DNA from: Candidatus Omnitrophota bacterium
GTDB lineage: Bacteria > Omnitrophota > Gorgyraeia > 2-01-FULL-45-10
Length of the DNA: 42,136 nt
Reading direction: 5' to 3'
NCBI GenBank assembly: GCA_026387155.1
Contig: JAPLMF010000027.1
Coordinates: 18,317-60,452, forward strand
Under the pieces are notes generated by a model. That model did no database searches. It was not told the origin of the DNA and was given only the letters and a program-made list of their open reading frames with translations. A program made the position numbers and the translations under genes. Shown in pieces: positions 25,376 to 42,136 of the stretch (position 1 is its first letter; each line of letters opens with the position of its first letter).

Positions 25376-25380
25376 ATTAC

Positions 25381-26835
25381 TTACACCGTACCTCTACGGT
25401 CTTCGAGGCTATCGCGGATATCCTCGGATTTTTGTCTTGTTAGCGGCACACGCATAACGAAAATAATAGCGACGACGAGACCCACGACCGGAAGAGATGC
25501 AAGGCTTGCGCGGATCCAGAATATAGTCTGAGGCGCCTGCACATTAACTTTCCAGGTAAAACCAGACCATGTCAAAATAAGGCCGGAAAAATAATACCCG
25601 AGTGAATTCCCCAGTTTAAGGATATAGGAACCGCAGGCCGTAAAAGAACCTTCCCTTCTTCTACCGGTATTCAGTTCATCGTAGTCCATAATGTCGGCGC
25701 CGATGGCGCTATGCAGCATCCAGAGACTAGCCGCGGCCATTCCCATCAAACCTGACGAGATCGTCTGCAGCCATTTGATCGCCGGCGTATATAAAAACCA
25801 GGAGCCGCCGTAACCGCATATGCCTATGACGCAGGCCACCACTGCCGCCTCGCGGTTGCCGATACGATCCGCCAAGAACTTATGCAATGGTACGCCTATA
25901 AGGCCGCCCACCATAAAAGCCACACCCATCCAAAACTGCCAATTATCTCCCGAAATTCTGTTGCCGCCGGCTACATAAAAGACCGTGGCGTAGTAACCAA
26001 GCGAGCCCACCATACTCGTGCCCATGGTAAAAGCACCGCCCATGACCATCATCTGACGGAATGGCTTACACTTAAGCGTCTCACCCAGGGAACTAAGAAT
26101 AGAGACCTTCTCTTTAACCTTTACCACTACTGTCTCATAGTAGCGCTCTTTAACTCTGAAGAAAATAATTATGGAAAAAATAGCCATTACTACGCCCAAT
26201 ATTGCTGTGTACATCCGCATTCCCAGGAGGGTATTCTTTTGCGCTGTTCCCGGAATTAGAAACCAGGCAAGGTTAGTGAACCGCAAAGCGTAAAAATTAC
26301 CCAATTCCGAAACCTTCTGGGTCATACTGCGATAGGACATTATGGAGGTCCGCTCATGATAATCAGGCGACATTTCCGCGCCAAGACTATAGTAAGGTAC
26401 GGTAAAGGCACTGACTATAGGATAATAAAGCATGGTGGAACCGATCATGTACCAAAAGACCGCGGAGACGCCGAGAAATTTTGCATCCGCCCAGGACGGC
26501 GACACCAAAAACAGTATCGGTAGGCAGAGTCCGCTAAAAATACCGGCTATCAAAATAAAAGGACGGCGACGACCCCATTTAGTACGTAAATTATCGGACA
26601 GCCACCCCACAATAGGATCAATAAGCGCATCCCATACCCGGATCAACGTAAGCGCCAAACCTACCAGCCACGGTTCAACACCCAAATACATGTTGAAGAC
26701 CGCAAAAGCAACAGCCGGGTACAACCAGAGGCCCCACATATCGACTGCCGTGCCAAGACTATAAGCCATCTTGGTGCCCCTCGGAACACGATCTCGCGGC
26801 GCTTTCCTTCTTTCAACAAATTTAGGTTCTTCCAT
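25381..26835 (-). CDS. MFS glycoside-pentoside-hexuronide (GPH) transporter
   Basis: DALIDPIVGWLSD..RTKWGRRRPF, PYYSLGAEMS..Y.ERT, GRRREG. Confidence 0.9.
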   Translation of the reverse strand: MEEPKFVERRKAPRDRVPRGTKMAYSLGTAVDMWGLWLYPAVAFAVFNMYLGVEPWLVGLALTLIRVWDALIDPIVGWLSDNLRTKWGRRRPFILIAGIFSGLCLPILFLVSPSWADAKFLGVSAVFWYMIGSTMLYYPIVSAFTVPYYSLGAEMSPDYHERTSIMSYRSMTQKVSELGNFYALRFTNLAWFLIPGTAQKNTLLGMRMYTAILGVVMAIFSIIIFFRVKERYYETVVVKVKEKVSILSSLGETLKCKPFRQMMVMGGAFTMGTSMVGSLGYYATVFYVAGGNRISGDNWQFWMGVAFMVGGLIGVPLHKFLADRIGNREAAVVACVIGICGYGGSWFLYTPAIKWLQTISSGLMGMAAASLWMLHSAIGADIMDYDELNTGRRREGSFTACGSYILKLGNSLGYYFSGLILTWSGFTWKVNVQAPQTIFWIRASLASLPVVGLVVAIIFVMRVPLTRQKSEDIRDSLEDRRGTV

Positions 26836-26871
26836 TACGTTTTCTCCTATTTCCTTTTTTGAACATTGCTC

Positions 26872-27813
26872 TTAGCGATTATAACATGCATCGATAAGAC
26901 GCTTTAAGCTTGTAGTAGCCACGCATTGAACCGTATCAGCACCGCCGTAATAAATTTTAATTTCGCCGTTATCTTCTGCCACGGCGCCACAGGTAAAGAC
27001 CACGCTGGGAGTCTGTCCCACAAGTTCGTATTGCTCCTCGGGGATCAGGATCGCGTCTGCAGACATAGCCTTGACTTTTGCCGGATTCTTCAGGTCCAAA
27101 AGACAAACACCTAATTGATAAACAAAATGCGATCTGCACTGAGTACGCACTCCGTGAAAAATAGTCAACCATCCCTCGGGTGTTTTAATAGGAACGGCTC
27201 CCGGCCCAATCTTTGTCCAGGCCCAGCGGATCCCCTCCCAGTTCCTAAATACACATTCACTCTTTCCCCAAAAGATCAGATCGGGAGAATAAGACACCCA
27301 AATATCCCCTGTATCGGATCCGGTATTGGGACGATCAAGGCGCGTATACAATCCGTTGATCTTCTCCGGGAAAAGCACTCCGTTGCGGTTATCTGTTTCA
27401 GAAATAAACCCCGCCCATTGAAATTTCTTAAAGTCCTTTGTCTTCACCAGGCTCAGCCGGCAGGTGTGGCCGCTATGCGCGGCGTGGACCATATAATATA
27501 TATCTCCGAGCTTTGTAACGCGCGGATCATAATACATACCGTCTGAATACTTCTTAAACTCCGGATCATCGTGGGGCATATCCAACGGCTTTGACCGAGG
27601 GTTAAAATGATAACCGTCCGCGCTTTCCGCGATCCAAAAACGGTCAACCAGAGCGGAATTCTCCACCCGGCAAATCATAATATAAGTTTTATTGTATTTC
27701 ACGATGCCGGAATTAAAAACATTTTTAATATCAGCCTCGGCGGGAAAATCCTTACCTGTCAAGATAGGATTTCCCTCATACCGCTTGCATATAGGATACT
27801 TCTTTGTTTTCAT
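26872..27813 (-). CDS. GH130 beta-mannoside phosphorylase
   Basis: VFNSG, YDPRV, NRNGVLFPEKING, KIGPGAVP, FHGV, YYGGADT. Confidence 0.9.
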   Translation of the reverse strand: MKTKKYPICKRYEGNPILTGKDFPAEADIKNVFNSGIVKYNKTYIMICRVENSALVDRFWIAESADGYHFNPRSKPLDMPHDDPEFKKYSDGMYYDPRVTKLGDIYYMVHAAHSGHTCRLSLVKTKDFKKFQWAGFISETDNRNGVLFPEKINGLYTRLDRPNTGSDTGDIWVSYSPDLIFWGKSECVFRNWEGIRWAWTKIGPGAVPIKTPEGWLTIFHGVRTQCRSHFVYQLGVCLLDLKNPAKVKAMSADAILIPEEQYELVGQTPSVVFTCGAVAEDNGEIKIYYGGADTVQCVATTSLKRLIDACYNR

Positions 27814-27846
27814 ATCTAATTTCCTCTCTTTTTAGGACTCTTTTTA

Positions 27847-28626
27847 TTATGCAATATCTAACCACTCTGTATCAGCTCTATTCCATTCTAAAATTGGATG
27901 CCCTCTACCTTCAAAGTATGCCCGGACTTTTTCTTGATCGTATTTTAACAGGTCTTCAAGAATAGGCACTAGGATGGAAAGAACATTATCGGATATTACG
28001 CTTCTTCGACAGATATGTCCCATATAAGGTGACGGAGAAACGGTTATTGGATAACCATTGTAGGACATGATATGTAACATCACATGAACATCGCTTGAAC
28101 CATCTCCTACATATATTATGGCATCCCTGGGAACATTCTCTTTTTCCTTTAACATATCGAGGGTGGCTACTTTCGCATGCCCGGCATTAGTTCTTTCAAC
28201 ATCCTGGACGATGCCATTTTTATAAACAAAAGTTGTGCCGTAGACGTTGTCGGCAGGTAAGATGTGTTCTACTGCTTTCTCAACACACTCTTTAGGCGCC
28301 GCGGATACTATATACGTGCTGAAACGGCAATTATCAATTCCTTCAGCCAGGATCTTCATTAGTTCGGGGACCCCTTTCTTGAGCTGAATCTCTTTTCCTA
28401 CTTCATAAAGAAGGTCTTTAGATACTTTCCCGATATAATCAGGGTCCCGAACTATCAAATGCGCGAGCTCTCCACCGAGCTGTACGATGTTTCTGCGTTT
28501 TATATCTTCTATCTTCCGGTCGAACGCTTGAGCGGATATTCCCAGCTTTGCGCTTAGTATATTTCCTACATCTCCTACAGAGAGTGTCTTGTCAAAATCA
28601 GAAGCAAAGATAATTTTTTTCTTCAT
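27847..28626 (-). CDS. HAD-superfamily phosphatase (IB-like)
   Basis: DFDKTL motif I, VSA motif II, K, GDGSSD motif IV. Confidence 0.85.
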   Translation of the reverse strand: MKKKIIFASDFDKTLSVGDVGNILSAKLGISAQAFDRKIEDIKRRNIVQLGGELAHLIVRDPDYIGKVSKDLLYEVGKEIQLKKGVPELMKILAEGIDNCRFSTYIVSAAPKECVEKAVEHILPADNVYGTTFVYKNGIVQDVERTNAGHAKVATLDMLKEKENVPRDAIIYVGDGSSDVHVMLHIMSYNGYPITVSPSPYMGHICRRSVISDNVLSILVPILEDLLKYDQEKVRAYFEGRGHPILEWNRADTEWLDIA

Positions 28627-28668
28627 TTTTAACGCACGCCTTCTTCCTTAAAATGTAAATGTTTTGGA

Positions 28669-28697
28669 AGTATAACACTTTCAGAACTGCTTGTCAA
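28669..28697 (-). promoter_or_regulatory. Near-consensus sigma70 promoter for HAD-GH130-MFS
   Basis: TTGACA (28697-28692), 17 nt spacer ending TGT, TATACT (28674-28669). Confidence 0.75.
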
Positions 28698-28716
28698 TAA
28701 AGGGGTTCGAAGCTTA

Positions 28717-29628
28717 CTAATACTCAACCTTCGTCTTTACAAACTTTATGTTGATTATCGTTATTATAAATACCACCGCGAATACGATATAACCCAATGC
28801 GGAGGCGTACCCCATCTGGAACTTCCTGAATCCCATGTCGTACAGATATGCTACAACGGTCAATGCTGAATCGAGCACGCCGCCTATGCCGAACTCGCTC
28901 TCCGTCATTATGTATATGCGCTCGAATACCTGGAACGACGCTATGAAGCTCATTATGACGACGAATACCATCGTAGGTTTTAAGAGCGGCAGTGTTATGT
29001 GCCTGAACTTCTCCCACCGGCTGGCGCCGTCAATATCCGCCGCCTCGTAAACGGTATTGGGTATCGTCTGGAGTCCCGCCAGGAAGAGTATCATGTTGTA
29101 GCCAATACCTGCCCATATCGACATTATCATGATGGCGGGCAGCGTCCATACCGGACTCATCAGCCAGTCTATGGGCTTAAAGCCCGCTAGCATGAGACAA
29201 TGGTTTATAAGGCCGTACTTCTCGCCTGCGAACATCCACTTCCATATCACGGATAGCGCTATTACCGAGGTGACGGTCGGGATGAAGTATATTGTGCAGA
29301 AGAAGTTCTTAAACTTTATCTTCTGGTTGACCGCCATAGCCAGAAGAAGCGAGAGTATGACCCCCGGAGGTATTACACCGACCGTATAGAAGATCGTATT
29401 ACGTATCGACTTCCAGAATCTTGGGTCATTGAATAATATAGTCCTATAATTATCGAGGCCGATCCATTTCGGCGAGTGTATGCCGTTATATTCGGTGAAC
29501 GACCAGTAGAAAGAAGCGACGAGCGGCCCCAGGACGAACACCGCAAAGAGGAGGACCACCGGCGCAATAAAAATGAACGACCACTTCTGTTCGTTCATTT
29601 TTGCTAAGAAGCTGCCTCTTTTTATCAT
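28717..29628 (-). CDS. Carbohydrate ABC transporter permease (MalF-like)
   Basis: GLDNY, YEAADIDGA..FRHITLPLL, GYASA. Confidence 0.93.
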   Translation of the reverse strand: MIKRGSFLAKMNEQKWSFIFIAPVVLLFAVFVLGPLVASFYWSFTEYNGIHSPKWIGLDNYRTILFNDPRFWKSIRNTIFYTVGVIPPGVILSLLLAMAVNQKIKFKNFFCTIYFIPTVTSVIALSVIWKWMFAGEKYGLINHCLMLAGFKPIDWLMSPVWTLPAIMIMSIWAGIGYNMILFLAGLQTIPNTVYEAADIDGASRWEKFRHITLPLLKPTMVFVVIMSFIASFQVFERIYIMTESEFGIGGVLDSALTVVAYLYDMGFRKFQMGYASALGYIVFAVVFIITIINIKFVKTKVEY

Positions 29629-29641
29629 ATCTTCCTATACG

Positions 29642-30436
29642 CTAAAACGTTCCGTACTTCGCCATGTACCTTCTTATCATCTCGAACGACTTTGGTACGT
29701 ATTCCAGCTCTTCCTCTTTGCCTTCGTACTCTACGTTAAAGAAGCCGCGATAGTTGGCTTTCTTAAGTATCGCGAATATCTTGTCATAGTCAAACTCGAG
29801 TTCCCTGCAATCGGGAGAGAGTTTGTGGATCTTGGCGTGCATGTGGGTCGCATAAGGGATCGACTTCTCAAGCGCCGCGTACGGATCGGGATCGTGATAG
29901 TTGCCGGAGTCAAGATTAAGCTTCACCCACGGTGAACCCACGTCTTTTAAGAGTTTCAGCGTCTCTACCGATGTCGGGAGATATCCGCCGCTGTTGTGAG
30001 ATTCGACGGCGAGAGTGACACCTTTCTTCGCGGCGTATACCGCGCACTGGCTTATGCTCTTTACGACCTTAGGCCAAAGTTCGGCGTGCCTCTCTTTAGG
30101 CGCCCATCCGGCGAATATGCGGAGGTTTGGGGAGCCTAAAAGATATGCGGTGTCCGTCCAGCTGTTTATCTTGGCTACCTCGGCCTTCTCATCAACATCT
30201 TTATCTTTGCCGAAACTGTTGCCCGGTGAAACGGCCGATATCGTTATGCAGAGGTCCGTCGCAAGCTTCTTTATCTTCAAGAGGTAATCCGGCTCCTGGC
30301 TCTTTAAATGGATATCGATTATATCCACCCCGCCTATTTTGAGATCGTTGGCGCACACATAAAGAAGCTTCTCCATATCCATCTTGCCGGATGCGAAAGT
30401 CCTGTTATACGACCAGGTGCAGAGTCCTAATTTCAT
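29642..30436 (-). CDS. Sugar phosphate isomerase/epimerase (TIM-barrel, IolE/XylA-like)
   Basis: AVESH, LDSGN, HMHAK and VEYEG metal motifs; ATGA overlap with the upstream stop supports start 30436. Confidence 0.85.
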   Translation of the reverse strand: MKLGLCTWSYNRTFASGKMDMEKLLYVCANDLKIGGVDIIDIHLKSQEPDYLLKIKKLATDLCITISAVSPGNSFGKDKDVDEKAEVAKINSWTDTAYLLGSPNLRIFAGWAPKERHAELWPKVVKSISQCAVYAAKKGVTLAVESHNSGGYLPTSVETLKLLKDVGSPWVKLNLDSGNYHDPDPYAALEKSIPYATHMHAKIHKLSPDCRELEFDYDKIFAILKKANYRGFFNVEYEGKEEELEYVPKSFEMIRRYMAKYGTF

Positions 30437-31473
30437 TTTACCTTCACCCATTTTCCTTTAGCACTGGATTCGTATGCGGCGTTTATGACAGCCATAGTGG
30501 CCCTGCCCTCTTCGCCTGACACGAGCGGCTTATTCTTCGTTATGACACAATCGATGAAACAGTGGACCGCGTTCTCCCAGCCGGAAGCCGTGGACCCGAG
30601 TTCAGGATATATTTCCTCGAGTATACAGTTCGGGTCGTCGCCCTTCCCGGTCTTGGCTATGACGACCCTGACGGGCTTTTCGGTCCCGATGGACGTCGTC
30701 ATCTTACCCTTTGACCCATAGACCGCCGTCGTAACCTCGTAAGGCCTAGTCGTCCACGAGCATTCTATCTCGCCCTTCGTGCCGTCTTCGAATTTGAACA
30801 ACACAGTCGCGTTATCGTCGACCTTTACATCTTTTTCGATCGTCCTGATGGTAGCAAATACTTCCACTATCTTCTTCCCGGCGAACCATCTCACGAGGTC
30901 AGTAATGTGCACGCCTATGTCTACCATTGCGCCGCCGCCGGACTTTGACTTATCATAGAACCAGTGGGCCTTGCCTTCCGACCAGTACTCAGGACCCGCG
31001 TGGCCGATCCTGCCACGTATGTTGTGTATCTTGCCCAATACTCCTGAATCGAGTATCTTCTTCGCGGCCTGATGGACAGGATCAAACCTCTGGGTCTGCT
31101 CTACCATGAGGTATACACCGTTCTTCGCCGCGGCCTTCGCCATTTTGTCGGCGGCCTTGGCAAATATCGCTATCGGCTTCTCCACAAGGACATGCTTCTT
31201 GTGTTTGCAGGCTGCCACCGCCATCTCTTCATGAAGGTAGTTCGGAGTATCGACGAATACGACGTCGATGTCTTTGCGTTTCACGACCTTCTTCCAGTTA
31301 GTCTCTATCTCGGCGCCGCTTAGCTGGAACTTATCTTTAAGAGCCCTTGCTTTGGCCGCATCTATATCACAGAGAACTTTTACTTCCGCCTTATCCTTGT
31401 AATTAATCAGGTTCGGCAAGCTCGCGCGCTCCGCGATCTTTCCACAACCGATAACTGCCACTCTAACTGCCAT
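30433..31473 (-). CDS. Gfo/Idh/MocA oxidoreductase
   Basis: VIGCGKIA, TPNYLH, VEKP, GGAMVDIGVH. Confidence 0.92.
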   Translation of the reverse strand: MAVRVAVIGCGKIAERASLPNLINYKDKAEVKVLCDIDAAKARALKDKFQLSGAEIETNWKKVVKRKDIDVVFVDTPNYLHEEMAVAACKHKKHVLVEKPIAIFAKAADKMAKAAAKNGVYLMVEQTQRFDPVHQAAKKILDSGVLGKIHNIRGRIGHAGPEYWSEGKAHWFYDKSKSGGGAMVDIGVHITDLVRWFAGKKIVEVFATIRTIEKDVKVDDNATVLFKFEDGTKGEIECSWTTRPYEVTTAVYGSKGKMTTSIGTEKPVRVVIAKTGKGDDPNCILEEIYPELGSTASGWENAVHCFIDCVITKNKPLVSGEEGRATMAVINAAYESSAKGKWVKVK

Positions 31474-31491
31474 TTCGGTGTTCCTCCTTTT

Positions 31492-32529
31492 TTATAAATA
31501 CACTTTCGCGCCCCTGCGCGACGATTCATAGATCGCCCAAACCAGCTTCTGGGTCTCGAGTGCATCCTCACCCGTTATTGCGGGTTTACGCCCGGCCCGC
31601 AAGGCATCATAGAAGTCCTTTATCTGGTTATAGTGGCAATAACCCCAATAGTCTCTTACACCATCGCCGTAATCGATATACTCATTTTTTTTCGGCGCGG
31701 CCTTCTCTTCTTTGCCCTTAAAATACCATATTTTCGCTGAATCTTTTACTATATTTACGCGGGCTTTTTCACAATCTATTTCTATCTCAGGATCGTCGTC
31801 GTAGGAATAGTAGTTTATAAGATAAAAACAGGCGTAAAAACCGTTCTTGAACCTGATCACGCCTTCGGCGGAATCTTCTACATTTATAAAGGAATGAAAA
31901 CGAACCGCTACCTTCGATTCTACGTAGTCGATGGGGGCGGGCGAGAGCCACCTGAGTATATCCAGGTAATGTATCGCCTGATCTATGACTACGCCGCCGC
32001 CTTCTTTGTCCTTGCGGCCTTTCCAGTCGCTCTTCTTGTAGTAGCTGTCGGGCTTGCAATATGAGAGCACCAGTTTTGCTGACTTCATCTTCCCCAAAGA
32101 ACCGCCCTGCACCCTTTTCTTTATCAATACGGAGCTGGGGTTGAACCTGTTCTGAGATATCACACCGAAAGTTATCCCGGCCCTCTTTGCCGCTACGATC
32201 TCTTTTTTAGCATCGGAAGGGTTTAAGGCCATCGGCTTTTCTGTCAATACGTTTATACCGCGCTTTGCGGCTTCGATGATCATTGGGGCGTGCAAATAAT
32301 GAGGGGTGCATATATGGACGCTATCAAGGCTCTCGGAGGAGAACATCTCCTTGTAATCTGAATAGGAGTTACATCCGTATCGGCGGGCTTTTTCCGCGGC
32401 GCGGGAATGCCTTATATCGCAGACTGCGGCTATCCGCACGCCCTTTATACGCCTCAAAGACTCGGCATGCATGGGAAATATCGTACCGCAACCGATTATA
32501 CCTACATTTATAGTGGACATGGAGCTCAT
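31492..32529 (-). CDS. Gfo/Idh/MocA oxidoreductase
   Basis: IIGCG, TPHYLH, TEKP, GGGVVIDQAIHYLD. Confidence 0.92.
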   Translation of the reverse strand: MSSMSTINVGIIGCGTIFPMHAESLRRIKGVRIAAVCDIRHSRAAEKARRYGCNSYSDYKEMFSSESLDSVHICTPHYLHAPMIIEAAKRGINVLTEKPMALNPSDAKKEIVAAKRAGITFGVISQNRFNPSSVLIKKRVQGGSLGKMKSAKLVLSYCKPDSYYKKSDWKGRKDKEGGGVVIDQAIHYLDILRWLSPAPIDYVESKVAVRFHSFINVEDSAEGVIRFKNGFYACFYLINYYSYDDDPEIEIDCEKARVNIVKDSAKIWYFKGKEEKAAPKKNEYIDYGDGVRDYWGYCHYNQIKDFYDALRAGRKPAITGEDALETQKLVWAIYESSRRGAKVYL

Positions 32530-32646
32530 CAGGGCTAAAACCCTGCGTTCCTTTCAGTCTATGCGACATCCCGCCCCGTTCATTCGACTTCCGCGGCGGG
32601 ATAAGAGAGATTAGGTTATCACAAGGCCATTATACCGTCAATCTAA

Positions 32647-32689
32647 TTCCAAACCTGGTTTGGATCCGCATGCCAAACCAGGTTTGGAA
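32647..32689. repeat. Nested palindrome (REP-like doublet)
   Basis: TTCCAAACCTGGTTTGG-9nt-CCAAACCAGGTTTGGAA; each arm is itself palindromic. Confidence 0.7.
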
Positions 32690-32715: not shown

Positions 32716-35700
32716 CTAGGCTGCTGAGAGTGATGCGATGAGCATACCGTTTAAAGTTGCAAACTCCTGCGGATCCCTTACTTCTATAGGGGGCAGGACG
32801 AATATAAACTTTCTGGCAAAATCCCTGCCGGAATCGGTCACGTCCGGTATTCTGGAAGGCGGAGCGCCGGTCAAAAGCTCATATATGCGAGAGAGCTTTT
32901 CCATCCTCTGGCTATAATCATTTATATATAAAGCCCTTAAACCGGCCAGTATACCTTCAAGCTGCCTAAATGTGCCCAGCCTTCCGCCCTCTGCCTTAAA
33001 TACAAGGAACTTGGCGTCCTTAGGCATCTTGGACATAAAGGCCTCATCGTCAAGATATCTCTCGTCATCGAGAGCAATATCCACCAAAACATCGCGTCCG
33101 GTAAGCTCCATCTCCCGGAGCTTTATCTTCTCTATCATCTTCTCGGGATGCCTCATTTCTTCTTCGGTTACAACAACTATCTTTTCACTTGAATCCGGAT
33201 ATTCATCGTTCCACCGTTTGACGACACCAGAGAAGACTGTCCTTTGCGTTTTGGATTGCCCGACATACTCGTGCGGAACAAGGGCCTCCGGTATTATGTG
33301 ATATATGACCTTACTGTCTTTGACAGGAGGAACAAGATCCTTATTTATCCGTCCTATGGCTTCTATGTCACGCTTAATCCTGTCCGAAAGCGTATCAGTC
33401 AAAGCGCTCTTTTTGATCAGCCATTCCAGCCATATCTTTCTCTCCCTGGCGCTGCCTTCCGACGTATTATACTTTACGCGGTCATATAAAGCATGGATCC
33501 TGTTTACAACTTCTCCGCCGGCCTTATATTGTCCCAATATATAACCAAGGCCTGCCGCGGCATTCCGGTACATAACGCCGGGTTCGCTATCTTCTTCCAA
33601 TATTTTAAGGAGCTCCGACGCGTATCCCGGATTACCGGATTTGCCGAGAATATTTGCCGCGACCCGCCGTACCGCAAGCGGCGCTTTAATATCCGCCAGC
33701 GCCGATCTAAGGTATTCTGTGTCGCCGCCCAGATCTTTGAGCATTACGCGCGATTTCGCTATTGTCGTCGCGGAATCAAGGCGCATCAGTTTATCTTGTA
33801 GTTTGCCAAGCGGCGCGGCATCGCTCATTAATATCTCTTTTCTCAAATCTGCTATCCTGTATGCCCTCTCCTTCATTATCTCAGAAAGCGGCCTCGCGTA
33901 ACCTTCCTTCTTCCACAGATATAGCGCCCAGTATGTATTGACCCACGCCACATCTATCACGTCGCCGCCCGTAACGTGGTCTTTAAGCCATTTCCTTTTT
34001 GTGGGCTCCAACATTGCTTTCAACCCGCCTTCAATAAATCTGTGCAGTATCTCTTCTTTGGATGTAGCTATACCGCCGTAATTGATAAGCCACGAAGGCT
34101 GCGATATTATCCCCTTCGCGAGCATTAGGCGCTCTATACGCGCCACTTCTTCCGGCCGGGACGTCTTCTTGCCGATAGGCGCGTTTGCCGCGGAAGCGAA
34201 TATCCTGACCTTTAAATTTGCCACATCTTCATCGGTCTCTATCTGATAGGCCTTCGCGGCAGGAATGGCTATCAAGGCATCTTTAAATAATATGCGCTTG
34301 GAGGCTTCCCTGGCGGCCGCCTCATCCTTAGACGACATCTCCGCGGTGGTCGCGATAACTTCGCTTGAGCCCAATATTTCGTAGTTTGCAGGATTAAAAA
34401 CAAACCTCTCGCCGCGTTTGGCGGCGGCGGCCTTATCTCCCGCAAGCCTGCCAATCTCTTCTAAGGGAATACCTCCCGAATTATAGATACTGCCGAAGTC
34501 CAGATCAGAGACGCCTACAACCCTAAAATTGTATTTATTGTAAACTTCGGGGTGTTCTAAAAATAGCTTTATGATATTTCCGCCGACTTCACCTAAACCC
34601 TGCAATATTATCGTCCGGGGTTTATCGGTAGGTATATTGAATTGTTTGATGACACTTTCATTGTCGAGAAGCGCGCAGATGCTTTCGAGCACCGACAGTG
34701 ATGTCACGCGCCATGCATCATGTGACAGGTATCCTTTTTCGGCGCTGCCGCTTGTCGTCAGCGGTATGAGCTCTGTATTCAGGTCCTTTTCCGCCTGTAT
34801 GCCTATTCCATCTATGAGCTCCATTATATCGCCTACATCCATATAGTTAGGCCGCATGTCAGGCCCTTCGATGCGGCTTACGCCGAGCGTCCCCAGATCT
34901 ATGAATGCTTTGACATACAGCTCTACGGCGCGCCTGACATTGGCGATATTCGCGGGACTCGCCTCTTTCTGGGCGCATTCGATCCTCACTCCGCCCTTTG
35001 CCACTACAAGGCCGCGGTCAAAGAGGTCTTTGTCGCCATAAACTGCCGTAGCCGCAAAATAGTTATTCCCGTCAACATAAAGGAACGACTTGCCGCCTTC
35101 AAAGAATACTTCGGCGAGAGGATTCTTAAATGACATATCCCTGGCCAGGTCCGTCGCTTCTTTAAGCGCGTTCAACGCACTGAAATCGCCGTTTTCAGAT
35201 GCTGTTATTGTGTAATAGAGAGGAAGATCTTTGTCGCGGAGCCCTAAAAGTTTGCCCAGATCGCCGCTCAGCATGATGCTAAGCCCGGCTTCACCGCGCT
35301 TATGGTAGTAGCCGTCTTCATTAGTCTTTATGACAAGGGCCCTTAGCGCCGCGAGTTTTTCTTCGGGCGTACCTTCGAGCGCGTCTCGCACTATCGGCAG
35401 CGCCGCTATCTTATTAAGAAGGATGTCGAGCTTTGCGGTCTCTCGGGCCTCGATATTTCTTATGAGGGAGCTTACGAGCTTAAGACGCTCTTTATAAGCA
35501 TTGTTCGGGCCGTGATCTTTACCGGTGAGGTGGGCAAGTTCGTCATCTTCCAGAATTGTCTTACAGAGACGTTCTGAATTCCTCTGAAAAATACGCTTTA
35601 ATAACTTCTCTCCTATATAAATGGCCCCGTCACGATAACCAGCGTGAGCGATATTGGAATGGGCTATATCGTTATTCCACCCTATGGCAGCCTCTCCTAG

Positions 35701-38700
35701 AACTATACGAAATTTAATCGGGCTGCCGCGTAGTCTATGAAGGTTGAGCCAATTTTTAACATTGGCCGATTCTTCTTCGCTAAAAAATCTTGTAATTTCA
35801 GCTGGCGGACCGCGGCACTCATTAGGATCAGTGGCCCCGGGCTTATATCCGTTGACATAACGGACCTGGTACGCCTTGAGCACTCCGTCTTCAATGGTAA
35901 CTTCAAACATCTTGCCGCTCGCGATAAGATCGCTTATTAAAGTATTGGAATCCGGAGCTTTGGGGCCTTTTAAATCCTTGTTCGGCGCGATCGCGGCTGC
36001 GGCGGTGACTTCTTTGCGCTCTACGGCCGCATTCCACTGCCTGAGATATTCAGCCGAGGTCAGACGCGCTTCAAGGATACCGCTCAGCTTGACGGCGGTG
36101 GCTTGATACTTAGCGACCTCTTCAGGGGTTTTTTCCAGGACAGCCATCAGCGCGGTAAAATACGACTCAGGTTTATTGTCTTTAGGGATGATGGTATTGC
36201 CTTCGCCGGGAATGTCCAGATTTATAGGTACGCCCTGCGACTGCAATATGCCTTCGGGCAGCGGCGGAGCGAGCTGCAAGCCTCCGCACACACCTACATC
36301 CGCTTCGGAATAACCGGCCGCTTCCGTCTTTGGATCGGAGTCCTGTATCTGGACATCCGTCGCGGCGAGGATAGCGCGCTGATCCTCAATATCTATATTG
36401 TGAATAATGGTAAAGCTGCCTTTATATACATCGGGCTCTGCCTGTTTTTTCCTGGCAATATCCCTCTCTATGTCGGAAAAACGCTTGATACTATTCACCA
36501 TATGAGGATTGACAGGCACATTAGCTCCTATCACGACCTGTATCCCTGCCCTTACCATCTTCTCTATATTCTCAGGGGAGAACGCTCTCGTCGGAGAGGC
36601 TTTTTCAGGTACCACCCTGCCGGTAAAGGAGACGACGTACTGGTCCTCTCTTAAGCCAAGCTTTTTTTTGGATTCCCGTTTTGTAGCGAGGACCTCTCCG
36701 GGGGTAGGCTCTTCCACATCCGCGTCGGGGAAGAGGCTAAGCATATTCTCGCGAAATATATGGGCCGTTGAAGCCCTCACGTCGCCATTCGTTACCGATA
36801 CCATCATATTGGTAAGATGATCCCATTCGTCGTGATTGTCATATCCGAACCCACGCGCAGGGCTTAGGATATCATCAACATGTTGGGCGCTTACACCCGC
36901 GTACCAATCGGCCGTACGGGCACCGGCCGAGGTCAGATCGACCACATTCCCATAGGTATGATAAAAATATTTCCAATATTTCTCATCGATACCGATATAC
37001 CTCAGAATATCATCGCCGGTCCTCCTGTCCCACCAGACCCTGTTTGGATACGTATGGGTACTGTACCCGACCATCGCCCTACCCAGTATGGGATCTTCCT
37101 TATAATAGATATTTCTGAAGAGGGGCGCCGACCCGAGCTGGCCGTCGTTAAAATGGATGGCGGGCGCTCGGTAATCATCTGCCGCCACGGCGGCTTTCCT
37201 TTTCTCAATAATCTTTATTAATTCAAGCGAAGCCCTCGAAAAGAAAGCGGAGAACTCCGCGTCCGATACGAGGTTGCCTTCATCCGGGTTCCTGTAGTGG
37301 TATAATCTTTCGGTATAGTAAGGCACTTCCGTCTCGGCCTGGCCTTTTTTATAGCCCTTTATAAGGTAGCTCTCAATACCGAACTTATTAACGGCCATAT
37401 AACAAACGGCTACGGCTGTAGAATTTCCTATAGGGACATCGAACCTCGCCACCTCTTTTATTTCTTCGGCTCCGACCCCTAATAACGCGGAGTAATTAGT
37501 TTCTTCATCCTGTCCGGTCTTCTTGTTCTTCGTCCTCGCGTAATATGGCTCGCAGGTCTTCAGGGGCTGCCCCCCGCATTTCAAAAGATCGGCGAATCCT
37601 ATGCTATGGGACTGCTCTACCCTGCCCAGGCCGCCTCCGGCATTCCAAACCTCGGAAGACACGACCCATACCGAACGGTCTCTAAGCGAACGGGCTTGTC
37701 TGGACATCCAATCCTCAGAGATCTCTTCTTTAAGCATTAACAGAATAGAGTCGACTACCGGCTTGCTCCTTACATCCGCGCATTCCGGGCTCGTAAGTAC
37801 GGTAACGAGCGACAGTTTCTCTTTCTTGCTGAGCAATCTTACCGCCCTGAGTATGGGGTATCTGGCTTCTACCGGATGGCGCTTGTTGGCAGCGGCAATC
37901 TGATCACATGCTGAGAGTAACTCCGAAACACTTCTGTCGCTCTCCCAGCCCACTTTAAGGGCCGCGCTCAGCTCTTTCAGCAGATACTTCCAGTTATCTC
38001 CAACCATCGCCTTAGGGACGTCCACCTGTTCCGATTTAGCCTGCTGATACCTTTTCCAGGCGCGTATCTTTTCGCCAAACTTATTCTTACCATGATTCTC
38101 AAGATCCTGGAGCGTGAGGCCCCTTATGTAATTCTCGGGCATATCCTTCCAGAAAATAGCGGCGGCTATCTGTATAGCCAGTAAATGAGTTGAAGTATCG
38201 TGCTCTGATGAATATTCGCCGCCTCTGCCGAATGCCGCGTGAAAAAATTCGTGAAAAAGCGCTTCCAGCCTGTGTTCATACAACGGACTTCTCGGATCAA
38301 AAAATTCGGCGGCGAGCCCTATCGATCTTTTGGTGCCGAAACCGAGATAGTATTTTTCCAAAGATTCGTAGACTGACTTGATAGTACCTAATTTCCAGCC
38401 CTCTGATGCATTTCTAAATAGAGCTATGGTTTCGAGCAGTTTATCTTTTACCGCATTGGGGGCGCGCGCCTTTATTATCTCTTCCAGCTCATCCAGGGTC
38501 CTTGAAAAAGACTGCGACTCATTCCACGGTGTAATGCTTATATTCTCCAGATCCACATCATTAAACCTGTGGCCTATCAACGGCTCGTCCGAAACGCCTG
38601 CCTGTGGATGTTCTGATAAGAAGATCTTTACCGCGAAACGATCCGGCGTATCATAGCCGCCTCCCAAACGCGATACAGCCGCGGAGTTTTCAAGCAGACA

Positions 38701-39084
38701 GACCCTTATCTGACCAGAAACTCCTTTTATAGGTATCGTTATTATGCCGTAGTCATCTAAGGTAATTTTGATATTCGGATCTATGTGCTCCATATAAGAA
38801 GGGTAATTATGTAAAGCCTTGACTGCATGGTCAACACCTTGCGCCTCTATAAGGCATTTTTCGCCGATGCGGCAGGCTATCTCCGTCAGAATAGCATAGT
38901 CCTTTATTTTATTATTGCGGGTAGTGTCTCCGGCGGGAGGGGTCGGATCGGAAACAATTTGCGGCGCAAGGGTATCTTTTGGAAAAACTTTAATATCGGC
39001 AAAGGCCGCGGAGGACGTGACCTGGGTCAGTATTACGAACCACGTCAGCGAGTGTAGAAGCAGATTATTTTGTTTCTTATCCAT
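32716..39084 (-). CDS. Giant secreted multidomain protein (~2120 aa): HExxH region, GT5/GT35-like GT-B domain, Glu/Leu/Phe/Val dehydrogenase domain, HEAT repeats, C-terminal domain
   Basis: Probable ATG at 39084 behind AGAGGA; signal peptide ..SSAAFA; HEFFH; GGGLGRV/HFNDG/VTNG/GRVVPEK/EAAG; MSFKN/AKGG/GPDM/QGLGEVG/AANAP/NYGG; VRRVAANILG. Confidence 0.8.
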   Translation of the reverse strand: MDKKQNNLLLHSLTWFVILTQVTSSAAFADIKVFPKDTLAPQIVSDPTPPAGDTTRNNKIKDYAILTEIACRIGEKCLIEAQGVDHAVKALHNYPSYMEHIDPNIKITLDDYGIITIPIKGVSGQIRVCLLENSAAVSRLGGGYDTPDRFAVKIFLSEHPQAGVSDEPLIGHRFNDVDLENISITPWNESQSFSRTLDELEEIIKARAPNAVKDKLLETIALFRNASEGWKLGTIKSVYESLEKYYLGFGTKRSIGLAAEFFDPRSPLYEHRLEALFHEFFHAAFGRGGEYSSEHDTSTHLLAIQIAAAIFWKDMPENYIRGLTLQDLENHGKNKFGEKIRAWKRYQQAKSEQVDVPKAMVGDNWKYLLKELSAALKVGWESDRSVSELLSACDQIAAANKRHPVEARYPILRAVRLLSKKEKLSLVTVLTSPECADVRSKPVVDSILLMLKEEISEDWMSRQARSLRDRSVWVVSSEVWNAGGGLGRVEQSHSIGFADLLKCGGQPLKTCEPYYARTKNKKTGQDEETNYSALLGVGAEEIKEVARFDVPIGNSTAVAVCYMAVNKFGIESYLIKGYKKGQAETEVPYYTERLYHYRNPDEGNLVSDAEFSAFFSRASLELIKIIEKRKAAVAADDYRAPAIHFNDGQLGSAPLFRNIYYKEDPILGRAMVGYSTHTYPNRVWWDRRTGDDILRYIGIDEKYWKYFYHTYGNVVDLTSAGARTADWYAGVSAQHVDDILSPARGFGYDNHDEWDHLTNMMVSVTNGDVRASTAHIFRENMLSLFPDADVEEPTPGEVLATKRESKKKLGLREDQYVVSFTGRVVPEKASPTRAFSPENIEKMVRAGIQVVIGANVPVNPHMVNSIKRFSDIERDIARKKQAEPDVYKGSFTIIHNIDIEDQRAILAATDVQIQDSDPKTEAAGYSEADVGVCGGLQLAPPLPEGILQSQGVPINLDIPGEGNTIIPKDNKPESYFTALMAVLEKTPEEVAKYQATAVKLSGILEARLTSAEYLRQWNAAVERKEVTAAAAIAPNKDLKGPKAPDSNTLISDLIASGKMFEVTIEDGVLKAYQVRYVNGYKPGATDPNECRGPPAEITRFFSEEESANVKNWLNLHRLRGSPIKFRIVLGEAAIGWNNDIAHSNIAHAGYRDGAIYIGEKLLKRIFQRNSERLCKTILEDDELAHLTGKDHGPNNAYKERLKLVSSLIRNIEARETAKLDILLNKIAALPIVRDALEGTPEEKLAALRALVIKTNEDGYYHKRGEAGLSIMLSGDLGKLLGLRDKDLPLYYTITASENGDFSALNALKEATDLARDMSFKNPLAEVFFEGGKSFLYVDGNNYFAATAVYGDKDLFDRGLVVAKGGVRIECAQKEASPANIANVRRAVELYVKAFIDLGTLGVSRIEGPDMRPNYMDVGDIMELIDGIGIQAEKDLNTELIPLTTSGSAEKGYLSHDAWRVTSLSVLESICALLDNESVIKQFNIPTDKPRTIILQGLGEVGGNIIKLFLEHPEVYNKYNFRVVGVSDLDFGSIYNSGGIPLEEIGRLAGDKAAAAKRGERFVFNPANYEILGSSEVIATTAEMSSKDEAAAREASKRILFKDALIAIPAAKAYQIETDEDVANLKVRIFASAANAPIGKKTSRPEEVARIERLMLAKGIISQPSWLINYGGIATSKEEILHRFIEGGLKAMLEPTKRKWLKDHVTGGDVIDVAWVNTYWALYLWKKEGYARPLSEIMKERAYRIADLRKEILMSDAAPLGKLQDKLMRLDSATTIAKSRVMLKDLGGDTEYLRSALADIKAPLAVRRVAANILGKSGNPGYASELLKILEEDSEPGVMYRNAAAGLGYILGQYKAGGEVVNRIHALYDRVKYNTSEGSARERKIWLEWLIKKSALTDTLSDRIKRDIEAIGRINKDLVPPVKDSKVIYHIIPEALVPHEYVGQSKTQRTVFSGVVKRWNDEYPDSSEKIVVVTEEEMRHPEKMIEKIKLREMELTGRDVLVDIALDDERYLDDEAFMSKMPKDAKFLVFKAEGGRLGTFRQLEGILAGLRALYINDYSQRMEKLSRIYELLTGAPPSRIPDVTDSGRDFARKFIFVLPPIEVRDPQEFATLNGMLIASLSAA

Positions 39085-39100
39085 CGTCCTCTTTATGGTC

Positions 39101-39135
39101 AAAAAAGGTACCCGGCAATAATTCGGGTACCTTTT
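39101..39135 (-). terminator. Intrinsic terminator (potentially bidirectional)
   Basis: AAAAAAGGTACCCG-9nt-CGGGTACCTTTT; T6 tail on the - strand, 30 nt after the stop at 39165. Confidence 0.75.
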
Positions 39136-39164
39136 ACCTTTCCCATCCCTGGATAAAATAATGG

Positions 39165-40130
39165 TTACAGCGACTTCAGCGCCGCCTGCGCGGCCCTGTA
39201 CGCTGCGCTTGCTGCCGCGAGATCCACCGGCACTATTCTCGGCAATATCCTGAAGAAACCTCTCTTAAGCAGCTCAATCACGTCGTCAATAGTAAAAGGC
39301 TTATTATCCGGTGCAAGAGCTACTCTATCGAGGGCCCAGAACACGAACCTGGCGCCATCTCTCGTATATCCGCCCGTAGCCCCATCTTTATACAGGACAT
39401 TTGCTACCGCTATCCTGAGCGCAAGGTCTTGTAGCCCGGGGACGGGCATGTAGCGCCCCCTACCGTCGCGCATCTGCTCGACATTAATGACACTTCCGTA
39501 CTGTGTGGCCGCGGCTGCGATCTTTTGGTCAGGAGTCGTCGTAACGACGGCCCGTACTTTACCCTGGTTATCTGTCATCGCCTTTTGTATGGCTTGCAGA
39601 AGAGCGCTTCCGGTACCTCGTATATTAATGATCCTATTACCGGCCTCCTGATTTATAAGACTCTGAGCAGCCTGTACTGTGCCGCGCAGCGCGTCTTCAA
39701 CAGTCGTATCGAATGCGTTTATGATCACTCCATCATCCACGTCGAGGCTCGTAATGAGACTTTTCATCTCTTTGGATGCCAGTGTATTGGCAAGATATTT
39801 GATCTGTCCGGTCTCTTTATTCTCGACAGCAGCTATCTCGGAAGCGGTCATCTCCAGAGATTCCGCGTCTCTTCGATTTGGAACGTCCTGAGTAAATACT
39901 TCGGCTGGCCCTTCCAACCCAAAGAGCTCATAAGCGCCGCCGGATGCCGCGAGAATAACATTCTCGCCTTCGTTAACTACATACCGCTTTCCCTGACTGT
40001 TCACTACTTCTATCTTGCCCTTTGTAACAAAGAGCGGTATATCTTCACCCTCATTCAAAGAAGAAGCTGATATGGAGCCACCCTGATCTATGGTATATCT
40101 GCCTGTAATATACCTATCTGTCTGGCCCAC
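39165..40130 (-). CDS. C-terminal part of a giant gene (PMI C-terminal cupin plus C-terminal domain), probably frameshifted from the upstream ORF
   Basis: Frame stays open 24 codons upstream of the GTG (..KKPEKAEFEVVGQTDRY..); cupin-like VTKGKIEV..EGENVIL. Confidence 0.65.
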   Translation of the reverse strand: MGQTDRYITGRYTIDQGGSISASSLNEGEDIPLFVTKGKIEVVNSQGKRYVVNEGENVILAASGGAYELFGLEGPAEVFTQDVPNRRDAESLEMTASEIAAVENKETGQIKYLANTLASKEMKSLITSLDVDDGVIINAFDTTVEDALRGTVQAAQSLINQEAGNRIINIRGTGSALLQAIQKAMTDNQGKVRAVVTTTPDQKIAAAATQYGSVINVEQMRDGRGRYMPVPGLQDLALRIAVANVLYKDGATGGYTRDGARFVFWALDRVALAPDNKPFTIDDVIELLKRGFFRILPRIVPVDLAAASAAYRAAQAALKSL

Positions 40131-42136
40131 TACTTCAAATTCCGCCTTCTCCGGCTTCTTAGCCCGAACGGCTCGAACTTCAAGCTCGCCGGCTCGACTC
40201 TGTTAAGTCCTCCCTGTCTCTGGGCTTCCTCCAGCGCAGCACGCGTCTTCGCAAGGGCGACCTCGTTCATCGTAAGAATGTCCTTACCTTCTCTGCCGGG
40301 ATTTTGGCTTCTCAATTCTTCCGCCGTCATTTTAAGCGAAGCACCGGGTTTGGTAATAAGAAACTTTAGGCGATCAAAGAAGGAAACCGTACCATTCTTA
40401 TCTTCTTCGGGTGTAACAGCCTTAACCTCATACACCTTTACCTGGCCGTAAGCATGGGGTACATTGGCAGGCACTATCATCGGAACGCCCGGCTCAAGCT
40501 CAATCTCGTTCATCACCTCATGCATCCTGCCCTGCATACAAGCCTCGATGATCTCTTCAGCCGTCATATTTTGTTTAAGCCCGAGATAGGCCTTACCCTT
40601 CTCGAGCGGCACTATCATCTCGCTGAATGTGTGGAGCTGCACCGATAGCGGAACTGCGGATGCGAGCACTTTCGCGGTTATCGGGGAGGCCCCGAGCTTC
40701 GAAGCTACTATGCGTTCGGCAACCTGATCATCAGCCGCTATCCCAAACTTAGCCGCAAGGGCAAGCCGCTCGGCCTCGGTCTTTGCCCCCATCTGCGCCA
40801 ATATGAAACTTTGGACGACAGACTGTCCCCACATATATCCCTTAGAACCCAGGTTAAATTGCGGCTCCATAGGTATGGGCGCAGCGGATGCAGTAAGTCC
40901 TACGACCTGCGCCGCGCGGGCGACCTGATCCGGAGTTATTATGACAACCGGCCTCGTCGAACTTCCGGTTTCAAGCGGCCTGTTTAAATATCTATCCATA
41001 TTATTATATCCATAAAGATCGCGCATAGAGATGGTTCCTTCTTTTGGGGACGTATGTGCCCTAAAACTTATCGTCAGTTTGTCTGTTCTATTGGCAACAA
41101 AGGCTTCCTGGCCATTAACGGTCACGGCAATATAAGGGACCGCTGCTGTCAATGTCCTAGGGGCAACTCCGGGGATAGTAAAAGAAAAGTCTTTGAATAC
41201 CAGGCCGCCTAAATTGACTATTTCATCAACATAGTAAGGATAGGCAACGGTCCACGATCCTCTCTCAAGACGATAGGCTGTGCCGCCCTTGTCATCTTTA
41301 TTCCACTGTATGCCTCTGCCGCTTACGACATACTTGATATCCATACTATCATTCTGTAAGTGTCCCGGCCCCGTCGATGTATGCTGTATCGACCCGGGCA
41401 GATAGTCATGCAGAAATACCGTTGTATGATATCCACCGATGTGCAACATCAGATACATGACCATCTTTGGCGACTGCGAATCAAACTTCTCTTTATCGTA
41501 TATGGCTTCGGCCGATATGTTCGAACCGAGCTTCGCCACGCCTTCGGCCCCGCGCCAGTACATACCGTAAGACGCACCTTCGGCGTCTGCTATATCTATG
41601 CCGGAATCTATCACTGAATGCGTATCGATATAGCTTAAGCCCCTGTCTTTATCCTCGGCCCTAAGCATGTCCACAGGATTTACGGTAAGAAGTAATTTTT
41701 CAGCTCCCGGAACCTTGTCTTCTATGAGTGAAATTATCGCAAGCGCCTGACCCGCCATGATCTGTAAGCCCCTGGAGACTTCAGGATCCGCGACATCGAG
41801 AGCGCGCTGCGCTACAAGTGCGAAGTACTTTTTAAGGTCCTCTTTGTTCGTAATCATCCGATAGAACTTTAAGCGGTCATTTGCATCTATCTTGAATGCA
41901 CTGAGAAGCTCGGATTCGGGTTGATATGCGGGCCTATTGTCGAATAGCTCGGCAAGTGCCACCTGCGCGTCTATCGTGGTTGCATCAGCCTTGTACGAGC
42001 CCGCTTGGCTAAGATCGGGGGATACCCCATATTTTCCGGGCGACGAGCTGATGGTCGCGACAGCCAAGGATGGAAGAGCGGGCGTTAACGGTGCGGCCTG
42101 AACAACAGGCTTAAACTCAAAGACATCCGCATCCTC
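40130..42136 (-). CDS. Giant multidomain protein, partial (starts outside the window): cupin glucose-6-P isomerase-like and class I mannose-6-P isomerase-like domains
   Basis: Frame open to the window edge; TGPGHLQ..YVVSGRG..IVNLG (cupin GPI-like); AKVL..PLSVQLH..PGVPMIVPANVPHAYG..YEV (PMI-like). Confidence 0.72.
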   Translation of the reverse strand, partial: EDADVFEFKPVVQAAPLTPALPSLAVATISSSPGKYGVSPDLSQAGSYKADATTIDAQVALAELFDNRPAYQPESELLSAFKIDANDRLKFYRMITNKEDLKKYFALVAQRALDVADPEVSRGLQIMAGQALAIISLIEDKVPGAEKLLLTVNPVDMLRAEDKDRGLSYIDTHSVIDSGIDIADAEGASYGMYWRGAEGVAKLGSNISAEAIYDKEKFDSQSPKMVMYLMLHIGGYHTTVFLHDYLPGSIQHTSTGPGHLQNDSMDIKYVVSGRGIQWNKDDKGGTAYRLERGSWTVAYPYYVDEIVNLGGLVFKDFSFTIPGVAPRTLTAAVPYIAVTVNGQEAFVANRTDKLTISFRAHTSPKEGTISMRDLYGYNNMDRYLNRPLETGSSTRPVVIITPDQVARAAQVVGLTASAAPIPMEPQFNLGSKGYMWGQSVVQSFILAQMGAKTEAERLALAAKFGIAADDQVAERIVASKLGASPITAKVLASAVPLSVQLHTFSEMIVPLEKGKAYLGLKQNMTAEEIIEACMQGRMHEVMNEIELEPGVPMIVPANVPHAYGQVKVYEVKAVTPEEDKNGTVSFFDRLKFLITKPGASLKMTAEELRSQNPGREGKDILTMNEVALAKTRAALEEAQRQGGLNRVEPASLKFEPFGLRSRRRRNLK

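Follow-up and report, generated by a model that had tools for sequence, protein, structure and literature searches.

A C-terminal domain shared by large enzyme-carrying proteins of Omnitrophota and its possible role as an export address

Two neighbouring genes on a stretch of 42,136 nucleotides from a Candidatus Omnitrophota bacterium (GCA_026387155.1, contig JAPLMF010000027.1, positions 18,317 to 60,452; hereafter the window) encode large proteins, A and B, that are otherwise unrelated and end alike. Their tails belong to a real, uncatalogued C-terminal domain (CTD) family on a known class of proteins, and the domain follows variable enzyme cargo at the very end of the chain, as an earlier sequence-only reading of the window had proposed. 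The tail may serve as an export or delivery address that is read after Sec translocation, an interpretation that is somewhat favoured here. All coordinates are window positions unless labelled otherwise, and (-) marks the minus strand. G000 is the genome of this stretch (91% complete), while C denotes a contig of a genome, L a fetched locus and P a listed representative protein; for instance, L001:5606-7000 equals G000:C68:66005-67399.

The shared C-terminal domain

Translation of 32716-32805(-) gives the end of protein A as IFVLPPIEVRD followed by PQEFATLNGMLIASLSAA and a stop, with the Leu-Pro pair (LP) beginning at 32796. Protein B ends at 39165-39254(-) with FRILPRIVPVD followed by LAAASAAYRAAQAALKSL and a stop, and here LP begins at 39245. 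The corresponding features are:

32719..32796 (-): motif in A, LPPIEVRD plus 18 residues, by translation
39168..39245 (-): motif in B, LPRIVPVD plus 18 residues, by translation
32719..33348 (-): A-type CTD, 210 aa, modelled with pLDDT 92.6 and pTM 0.90
39168..39827 (-): B-type CTD, 220 aa modelled, pLDDT 89.2 and pTM 0.89, ending K-S-L

The pattern LPxIxxxD plus exactly 18 residues is thus present at both sites. It occurs in 2 of the 1,289 closed non-nested open reading frames (ORFs) of the genome, namely A and B themselves, a count that shows rarity only, the pattern having been derived from these two proteins. The spacing does not extend to the family: 8 of 150 representatives keep it, and exactly 18 residues after the Asp were rejected as a family signature, being found in 2/39 A-type, 6/32 B-type and 0/20 C-type tails. 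The position of LP at -26/-27 from the C-terminus is far more widely kept (105/150). What is conserved is a domain rather than a 26-aa motif, with ~200 conserved positions per tail subfamily in the alignments.

A third gene further upstream (protein C, G000:C68:69518-72514, open at the contig end) ends in ..YLPPTLPIDFGTEIETFRRAVELIRTAA. Queries made of the final 230 aa of A, B and C found matches in 16, 13 and 25 of 41 related genomes, respectively; the C tail gave no match in the related-locus search. Relatives of the A tail and of the B tail each sit at the C-terminus of large ORFs, as do the fetched matches of all three queries except L045 and L046, two internal partial matches to the B query that were left out of the alignments. 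A profile hidden Markov model (HMM) of the A-type CTD, a check proposed by the sequence-only reading, retrieved 598 clusters (50% identity) at E<=0.001 from a set of 1.84 billion representatives. In all 150 listed representatives, which include A and several seed proteins, the CTD lies within 3 residues of the C-terminus, and it is never listed internally (median protein length 993 aa). The terminal residue is Ala in 146 of the 150 (AA in 105, SA in 31), compared with a background among 1,241 genome ORFs of 6.2% ending in Ala and 1.3% in [SA]A. The family consensus is a hydrophobic residue before LP at -26/-27, then an amphipathic helix, with small residues at the last two positions.

The relatives of the tails are Omnitrophota proteins. 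The A-type CTD turned up in 39 of 301 genomes of the phylum, with two families rich in it (13/15 and 17/20) and the largest other family devoid of it (0/49). G000 holds seven ORFs with a profile-supported tail (three on C68 and one each on C89, C8, C90 and C1), a count that is partly circular through the pooled-profile seeds, although the A-only profile by itself retrieved C89 and C8, and a profile built without C90 retrieved C90. Five further tails (C13, C29, C61, C28, C57) are alike by eye only, with profile E>0.04. Neither the A nor the B tail has a sequence match in Pfam, NCBIfam or PDB, and word-based protein searches with short tail alignments returned 5 and 2 proteins, which is weak evidence.

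The tails of A, B and C are distant from one another. Single-sequence phmmer with any of them found no other tail in the genome at E<0.5, so the relation lies below pairwise detection. Profile-profile alignment (hhalign) pairs A with B end to end over 167 columns at P 4.5e-4, or P 2.9e-3 with a deeper A profile; reversed-alignment controls gave P 0.35-0.81, 0.35 being the control for the deeper profile. The upstream segments FRQLEGILAGLR and YMPVPGLQDLALR, already judged similar from the letters, are both present and align with each other in this comparison. In two bridging sequences, L123 and L125, the same last ~85 residues are matched by independent A and B profiles (E values with the A and B profiles of 1e-6 and 4e-5; 4e-7 and 2e-6). 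AlphaFold2 models of the two domains share the order beta-alpha-beta-alpha-beta-alpha-beta-alpha-alpha-alpha-beta-alpha; in the A-type model these form a four-strand alpha/beta lobe, three helices, a short strand (FIF), LP and a terminal amphipathic helix ending S-A-A. Neither a lack of C-terminal enrichment nor a difference in predicted fold was observed, and the tails of A and B are probably, if weakly, related as remote homologs.

Known structures offer little likeness beyond a general lobe. Foldseek with the CTD models reached best E values of 7e-3 (PDB) and 7e-3 (BFVD), and VIA structure searches with best Z scores of 4.9 (A) and 7.2 (B) returned only generic periplasmic-binding-protein/flavodoxin-like alpha/beta lobes. 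For instance, 5bra_A superposes on the A model with Z 4.8 and a root-mean-square deviation (rmsd) of 4.6 over 155 aligned residues, and on the B model with Z 7.2 and rmsd 3.8 over 160. A structure atlas search with the CTD homolog P0155 gave no usable match, and no catalytic-type or pocket residues are conserved across the CTD subfamilies. Such generic neighbours, like the weak similarity of A to B, would suit an explanation in which the shared ends are remnants of a few paralogue families that duplicated and shuffled their cargo, the two tails being convergent or having unrelated jobs such as ligand sensing by the flavodoxin-like lobe. This is improbable, as the bridging sequences, the far weaker reversed controls, the identical order of strands and helices, the lack of conserved catalytic-type or pocket residues and the strictly C-terminal position in every listed representative all speak against it.

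Architecture of the carrier proteins

Proteins that carry the CTD follow a common plan: a signal-peptide-like leader, a TLAP-like motif, an N-terminal domain (NTD), variable enzymes of cytoplasmic type and the CTD. Protein A displays the whole plan, comprising leader, TLAP, NTD, a glycogen-synthase-like GT5 glycosyltransferase domain, a Glu/Leu-dehydrogenase-like domain, HEAT-like repeats and the CTD, and it has no internal transmembrane (TM)-like segment. Its features are:

32716..39102 (-): protein A, 2,128 aa when started at TTG; an alternative start is Met at 39084
38998..39102 (-): predicted Sec-type signal peptide, with basic n-region, hydrophobic core and A-F-A site, by eye and hydropathy
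38962..38973 (-): TLAP motif, residues 44-47, directly behind the predicted cleavage site
38608..38961 (-): conserved NTD of ~115 aa, common to 29 representatives
36835..37671 (-): cargo 1, starch/glycogen synthase catalytic domain (PF08323, E 2.9e-11)
34045..34659 (-): cargo 2, Glu/Leu/Phe/Val dehydrogenase NAD-binding domain (PF00208, E 4.8e-10)

Hydropathy identifies a hydrophobic leader in 77 of the 135 representatives that start with Met, the rest possibly being fragments. The leader of A ranked first in the genome by a leader profile that counts A among its 77 training leaders, and the top eight ORFs of G000 by this profile are all CTD-bearing or giant. The coupling of the tail to a leader and a TLAP-like motif, a further check put forward with the sequence-only reading, was borne out: L[AS][PAVTI] stands directly behind the leader in 70 of these 77 representatives versus 28 of 190 other leader-bearing ORFs of G000. 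Internal TM-like segments are absent from 135 of 150 representatives; giants have ~20.

Between the two ends lies a wide range of cargo. Across carriers it includes GT5, deaminase, methyltransferases, phosphorylase, ROK kinase, carbamoyltransferase, phosphofructokinase and fructose-bisphosphatase, as well as GAPDH-PGK-TIM, PGAM, phosphoglucomutase/phosphomannomutase (PGM/PMM), a phosphoenolpyruvate (PEP) utiliser and radical SAM domains. A Pfam match was obtained in 23 of the 32 carriers of one Pfam scan, and no RTX family was matched in the Pfam scans of carriers. The cargo enzymes of A and B keep recognisable active-site motifs.

Protein B is encoded only in part within the window. Its cargo consists of PGM/PMM and a mannose-6-phosphate-isomerase-like region, and no internal TM-like segment was detected. 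The relevant positions are:

39165..42136 (-): 3' part of B, with mannose-6-phosphate-isomerase-like region, cupin-like segment and CTD; the gene extends past the window
40164..40165: assembly error in B, 19 bases missing that are present in 4/4 sequencing runs

Beyond the window B continues with phosphomannomutase domains, an N-terminal domain named QDAH and a leader, reaching ~G000:C68:67564. As assembled it is a 321-aa ORF, with 2,406-aa and 653-aa frames lying upstream across two frameshifts. The second frameshift, at L001:5262/5263, lacks 34 bases that are likewise present in 4/4 runs; the four runs come from three studies, and two of them are possibly the source sample. Since the runs carry the missing bases, both frameshifts are assembly errors and B is one giant gene; the insertions are each 1 mod 3, and the frames, joined by hand, run without a stop to ~3,370 aa. 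Programmed frameshifting or pseudogenisation is ruled out by the same reads. The description of A and B as tandem giants was accurate for A, did not hold for B as assembled and holds once the errors are removed.

Further irregularities surround B. The 11-N scaffold gap (window 42136 / L001:54-64) is an 18-base over-estimate, spanned by a contig of one run with the frame intact. At window 40547 and 41074 and at L001:5208, 5453, 10164 and 11832 the assembly differs by single bases from most or all runs, likely through further consensus errors or strain differences. Several giant genes of G000 are split by frameshifts (contigs C56, C61, C1 and C68); the two that were checked, on C68, are assembly deletions, so other splits may be assembly errors too. 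The C56 giant, open at the contig start, and the C68 end fragment may be one gene, as they resemble the two ends of a 12,493-aa giant of genome G015. Orthologs of B (L237, L238, L276, L279, L284, L287 and others) carry a different tail type, ..LxMPIKPFD..QRRKVMWSV; the CTD can therefore be swapped or diverge fast on one gene.

The QDAH domain at the N-terminus of B (~465 aa, L001:5606-7000) is also found on giants and has invariant QDAHCNYE, EG, GxE, R and GG(F/Y)H. These include the residues H, E, E, R and H, and weak matches to the ChaN/Tiki superfamily were obtained for 5 of 19 members (best E 0.011), whereas a structure search returned helical look-alikes only. Some copies are fused to giants and others stand alone, the latter with a leader and a length of ~530-570 aa; 119 of 201 Omnitrophota genomes have the domain, with up to 15 matches each, and it is also present in genomes titled outside the phylum. 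It may be a processing enzyme or a chaperone of the system. As the domain leads to giants independently of the tail, 22 ends were fetched through it, of which three ran off contigs and three were broken; of 16 cleanly closed giants from other families and another class, 11 end in Ala, 3 in Val, 1 in Ile and 1 in Phe. Among closed QDAH-led ORFs of >700 aa, 31 of 35 end in V/L/A. In three genomes titled Actinomycetes, Actinomycetota and Auribacterota, Ala is the last residue of 8 of 10, and one more closes with AI.

The two ends of the carriers are linked. The ~115-aa NTD falls into three groups, and the nearest CTD neighbour belongs to the same NTD group in 71 of 76 cases, compared with a shuffled mean of 25 and maximum of 48. 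In the cargo-less proteins P0020 (375 aa) and P0065 (368 aa) the leader, NTD and CTD are joined directly. Both observations would fit a CTD that is a structural assembly module, one that clasps the NTD of its own chain or of an adjacent one, or anchors every family member to a surface coat or a periplasmic multi-enzyme scaffold, and plays no part in passage across the outer membrane. The CTD is moreover well folded, globular and bigger than a linear signal, and part of one report proposes a surface coat for the V. archaeovorus giant (PMC10066038). However, NTD and CTD would also track each other by simple gene inheritance, and the most widely kept feature is a free terminus with small residues, which persists where the globular domain is unrecognisable. 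One such case is a 389-aa ORF whose methyltransferase domain precedes a short tail that closes with ..RRISAISHSA. Nucleotide-dependent cargo also makes little sense on an outer surface, and on balance the assembly module appears unlikely, though it is the strongest of the competing explanations of the tail.

The tail as a candidate export address

The export reading, given slightly better than even chances, proposes three steps. The N-terminal leader would route the chain through Sec into the periplasm. A free C-terminal helix would then be recognised by a dedicated outer-membrane exporter, with the CTD as its lineage-specific presenting scaffold. Finally, the cargo would act in the cytoplasm of a host or prey cell, steering carbon into sugars taken up by neighbouring importers; such a site is suggested by the cargo's need for ATP, NAD(P), ADP-glucose, PEP or S-adenosylmethionine, which would leave it useless in the periplasm. 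The conduit may include a TM-rich giant that bears a SecA domain and this kind of tail.

A small nonpolar terminus can also be a degradation signal. The ssrA Ala-Ala tag is read by ClpXP, and nonpolar termini are read by Prc/Tsp. The tail might accordingly be a handle for a protease or unfoldase and govern turnover or processing rather than export, given its near-invariant terminal Ala-Ala or Ser-Ala (Ala in 146/150), and the QDAH domain, with its weak ChaN/Tiki matches, could be the processing enzyme. The chances of this explanation are slim, a little below those of an assembly module. No S41 (Prc/Tsp) peptidase was found in G000 at its 91% completeness (ClpX/ClpA were not searched), a leader-bearing protein would exit the compartment in which ClpXP acts, the cytoplasm, the termini of B- and D-type tails are SL/SV, and a degron needs no folded domain of 200 aa.

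Several known secretion systems resemble parts of the carrier plan. Substrates of the type IX secretion system (T9SS) of Bacteroidota likewise combine an N-terminal signal peptide, variable cargo and an obligatory C-terminal folded domain. That domain is ~80 aa in size. Identity with it is ruled out by predicted fold, the present domain being modelled as a ~200-aa alpha/beta structure with a terminal helix (pLDDT ~90) and no Pfam or NCBIfam CTD match, and the T9SS CTD an Ig-like beta-sandwich according to part of PMC11285876. In type IV secretion (T4SS; Dot/Icm, VirB), as in ssrA and Prc tags, the information lies in the last ~20 residues, whereas the present tail belongs to a folded domain; neither VirB4 (PF03135; Dot/Icm-specific families were not searched) nor Prc was found in G000. 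PorV (PF19572) was not found in G000 either, the other T9SS components not having been searched. The comparison with T9SS and T4SS drawn in the sequence-only reading therefore stands as an analogy only. The placement of the TLAP-like motif recalls PEXEL/RXLR, a short Leu-containing motif directly behind the signal peptide, to which no sequence relation is expected.

Type I secretion (T1SS) and MacAB-TolC resemble the present case in gene neighbourhood, with TolC and a membrane-fusion protein (MFP) beside giant genes, and T1SS substrates have an uncleaved C-terminal signal where the carriers have a conserved C-terminus. Here, however, the partner is a pair of AcrB-family resistance-nodulation-division (RND) proteins rather than an ABC transporter, N-terminal leaders are present, no RTX repeats were detected and the carriers far exceed the ~10 kDa of MacB cargoes. 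The carriers were rejected as T1SS substrates, given the leaders, the missing RTX match and the lack of an ABC set with the giant; G000 has two PF00664 ABC exporters, encoded on contigs other than the giant's. Precedents for Sec followed by TolC are MacAB-TolC and enterotoxin II (part of PMC8277102), and giant proteins beside TolC are reported, in part of 10.64898/2026.03.19.712371, to be transferred to the partner cell in Chlorobium chlorochromatii consortia.

The RND-MFP-TolC set beside the largest giant is put forward as the lead candidate exporter, if only tentatively. In G000 the order ROK-TolC-MFP-AcrB-AcrB stands directly upstream of this giant (G000:C56:27224-38294, L224), and TolC-MFP-AcrB-AcrB precedes a giant in 4 of 11 other upstream regions read (G150, G059, G206 and G139). 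In L298, TolC-MFP-AcrB genes flank a giant ending ..VFEQAA plus a stand-alone QDAH gene. Of the eight AcrB-like proteins, six have one Asp (VDN/VDS) at the position of AcrB D407-D408, five have N for K940 and seven a R971/T978-like motif. Orthologs of the MFP, at an author-chosen cut-off of E<=1e-40, occur in 110 of 201 genomes, 102 having both MFP and QDAH, 17 QDAH only, 8 MFP only and 74 neither; by listed family (30) the counts are 10 both, 1, 3 and 16 neither. G139, counted as QDAH only, has the operon below threshold. As kin are not independent and the threshold was author-chosen, this co-occurrence is a lead rather than proof.

The next candidate is the universal type IV pilus/secretin machinery, whose part as exporter is rather doubtful. 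G000 encodes one secretin, three PilB/GspE-type loci, PilT and pilins; secretin co-occurrence is uninformative because all 201 genomes have a secretin. Neither FHIPEP of type III secretion and flagella nor VipB of type VI secretion was found in the 91% complete G000.

A number of observations weigh against export in general and the RND-MFP-TolC route in particular. Signal peptides were called by hydropathy only. The A-, B- and C-type CTDs are weakly linked (hhalign P 1e-4 to 3e-3, probability 11-55%), and after four rounds of HMM search started from A, 2 of 27 B tails had been recovered, protein B not among them, and none of 21 C tails. Tails from distant lineages and other classes lack profile homology to A, B or C, so what persists widely is a terminal helix with small residues, and the LP-bearing CTD is restricted to particular lineages; the A-type domain was found in only 39 of 301 genomes. 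The TolC-MFP-AcrB-AcrB operon does not stand directly upstream in 7 of the 11 regions, at either of two other giants examined, or in 78 of 80 QDAH loci, mostly B orthologs behind another CTD gene. It is headed by a ROK regulator, and the MFP counts ignore kinship and compare with the QDAH domain rather than with the CTD. RND pumps are familiar as transporters of small molecules. The secretin found in every genome keeps a pilus or type II secretion (T2SS) route in play, and T2SS/Tad loci lie beside many giants in parts of two reports (10.1101/2023.11.21.568195; 10.64898/2026.06.07.730766). Cargoes of the cited Sec-TolC cases are <=10 kDa (part of PMC8277102). Host dependence is not established for this lineage, many Gorgyraia possibly being free-living (part of PMC10066038).

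The protein class itself has been described. Archaeovorins (West-Roberts et al., 10.1101/2023.11.21.568195; class 1 of 10.64898/2026.06.07.730766), as far as parts of these reports show, share with the present proteins the phylum, cargo of the GT5, PGM/PMM, ROK, radical SAM and HEAT kinds, signal peptides, a SecA-like domain in the largest member and downstream sugar-import genes. The giant of this locus type, of Archaeovorin kind, ends in a C-type CTD. A and B differ from the Archaeovorin type, which has many TM helices, a SecA-like domain and >8,000 aa; no SecA match was found in them. Parts of the same two reports cover cargo, signal peptides, TM helices and T2SS/Tad neighbours. These parts of their main texts describe neither a C-terminal domain or tail common to the proteins, nor a TLAP leader, nor TM-less members of 400-4,000 aa, a point on which the supplements could bear. 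RND, efflux, TolC and AcrB have 0 occurrences in the two main texts. Literature searches, at the level of listings and abstracts, turned up no description of this CTD.

The exit route of Omnitrophota giants and the site of their cytoplasm-type enzymes are an open question in parts of the giant-protein reports. The tail offers a marker that gathers the whole substrate set, about 7-12 genes in G000 and hundreds of clusters overall, connects the known giants with a wider family of soluble members of 400-4,000 aa and points to a concrete candidate exporter. The cargo-less proteins of ~370 aa make the export idea testable in a laboratory host. If the signal alone is true, it would be a new sorting-domain family; if the RND-TolC route is true, a new kind of protein secretion. 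In its fullest form, which is imaginable but not probable, the proposal is an undescribed delivery system of Omnitrophota and a few related lineages, in which Sec-exported enzyme cassettes would leave the periplasm through an RND-MFP-TolC pump repurposed for polypeptides of up to >10,000 residues, with help from a TM-rich, SecA-bearing giant, and would install pathways in a host. Gluconeogenesis, glycogen and mannose pathways in the host would then feed the parasite's sugar importers.

Gene surroundings

CTD-type genes form tandem arrays headed by a giant, with six in G027:C21 and five in G150:C4. The giant of G015 has 12,493 aa and ends in a C-type CTD (L134:2-14998, G015:C4), with 22 TM-like segments and a weak SecA P-loop match (E 1.3e-4). 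The same giant has a weak full-length match to the TolC-like Pfam family OEP (E 4e-4), perhaps a channel-like segment of its own. Sugar-binding, porin-like, glycosidase and ABC genes follow the arrays, and the window's downstream genes are of the same kind as these:

24071..32529: sugar uptake and catabolism genes downstream of the array

This region encodes two Gfo/Idh/MocA oxidoreductases, a xylose-isomerase-like TIM barrel, an ABC permease, a HAD hydrolase, a GH130 mannoside phosphorylase, an MFS sugar transporter and a PfkB kinase.

Two minor observations concern the array itself. A GAF-GAF-HD-GYP-type protein (L001:7332-9083) is encoded between the end of the giant and B, and an HD-GYP-like ORF occupies the same place in G014:C8 and G022:C1. 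Between A and the next gene lies an imperfect inverted repeat of ~44 bp (32645-32689), of which the genome holds two more copies (C29 and C5) at 95% identity.

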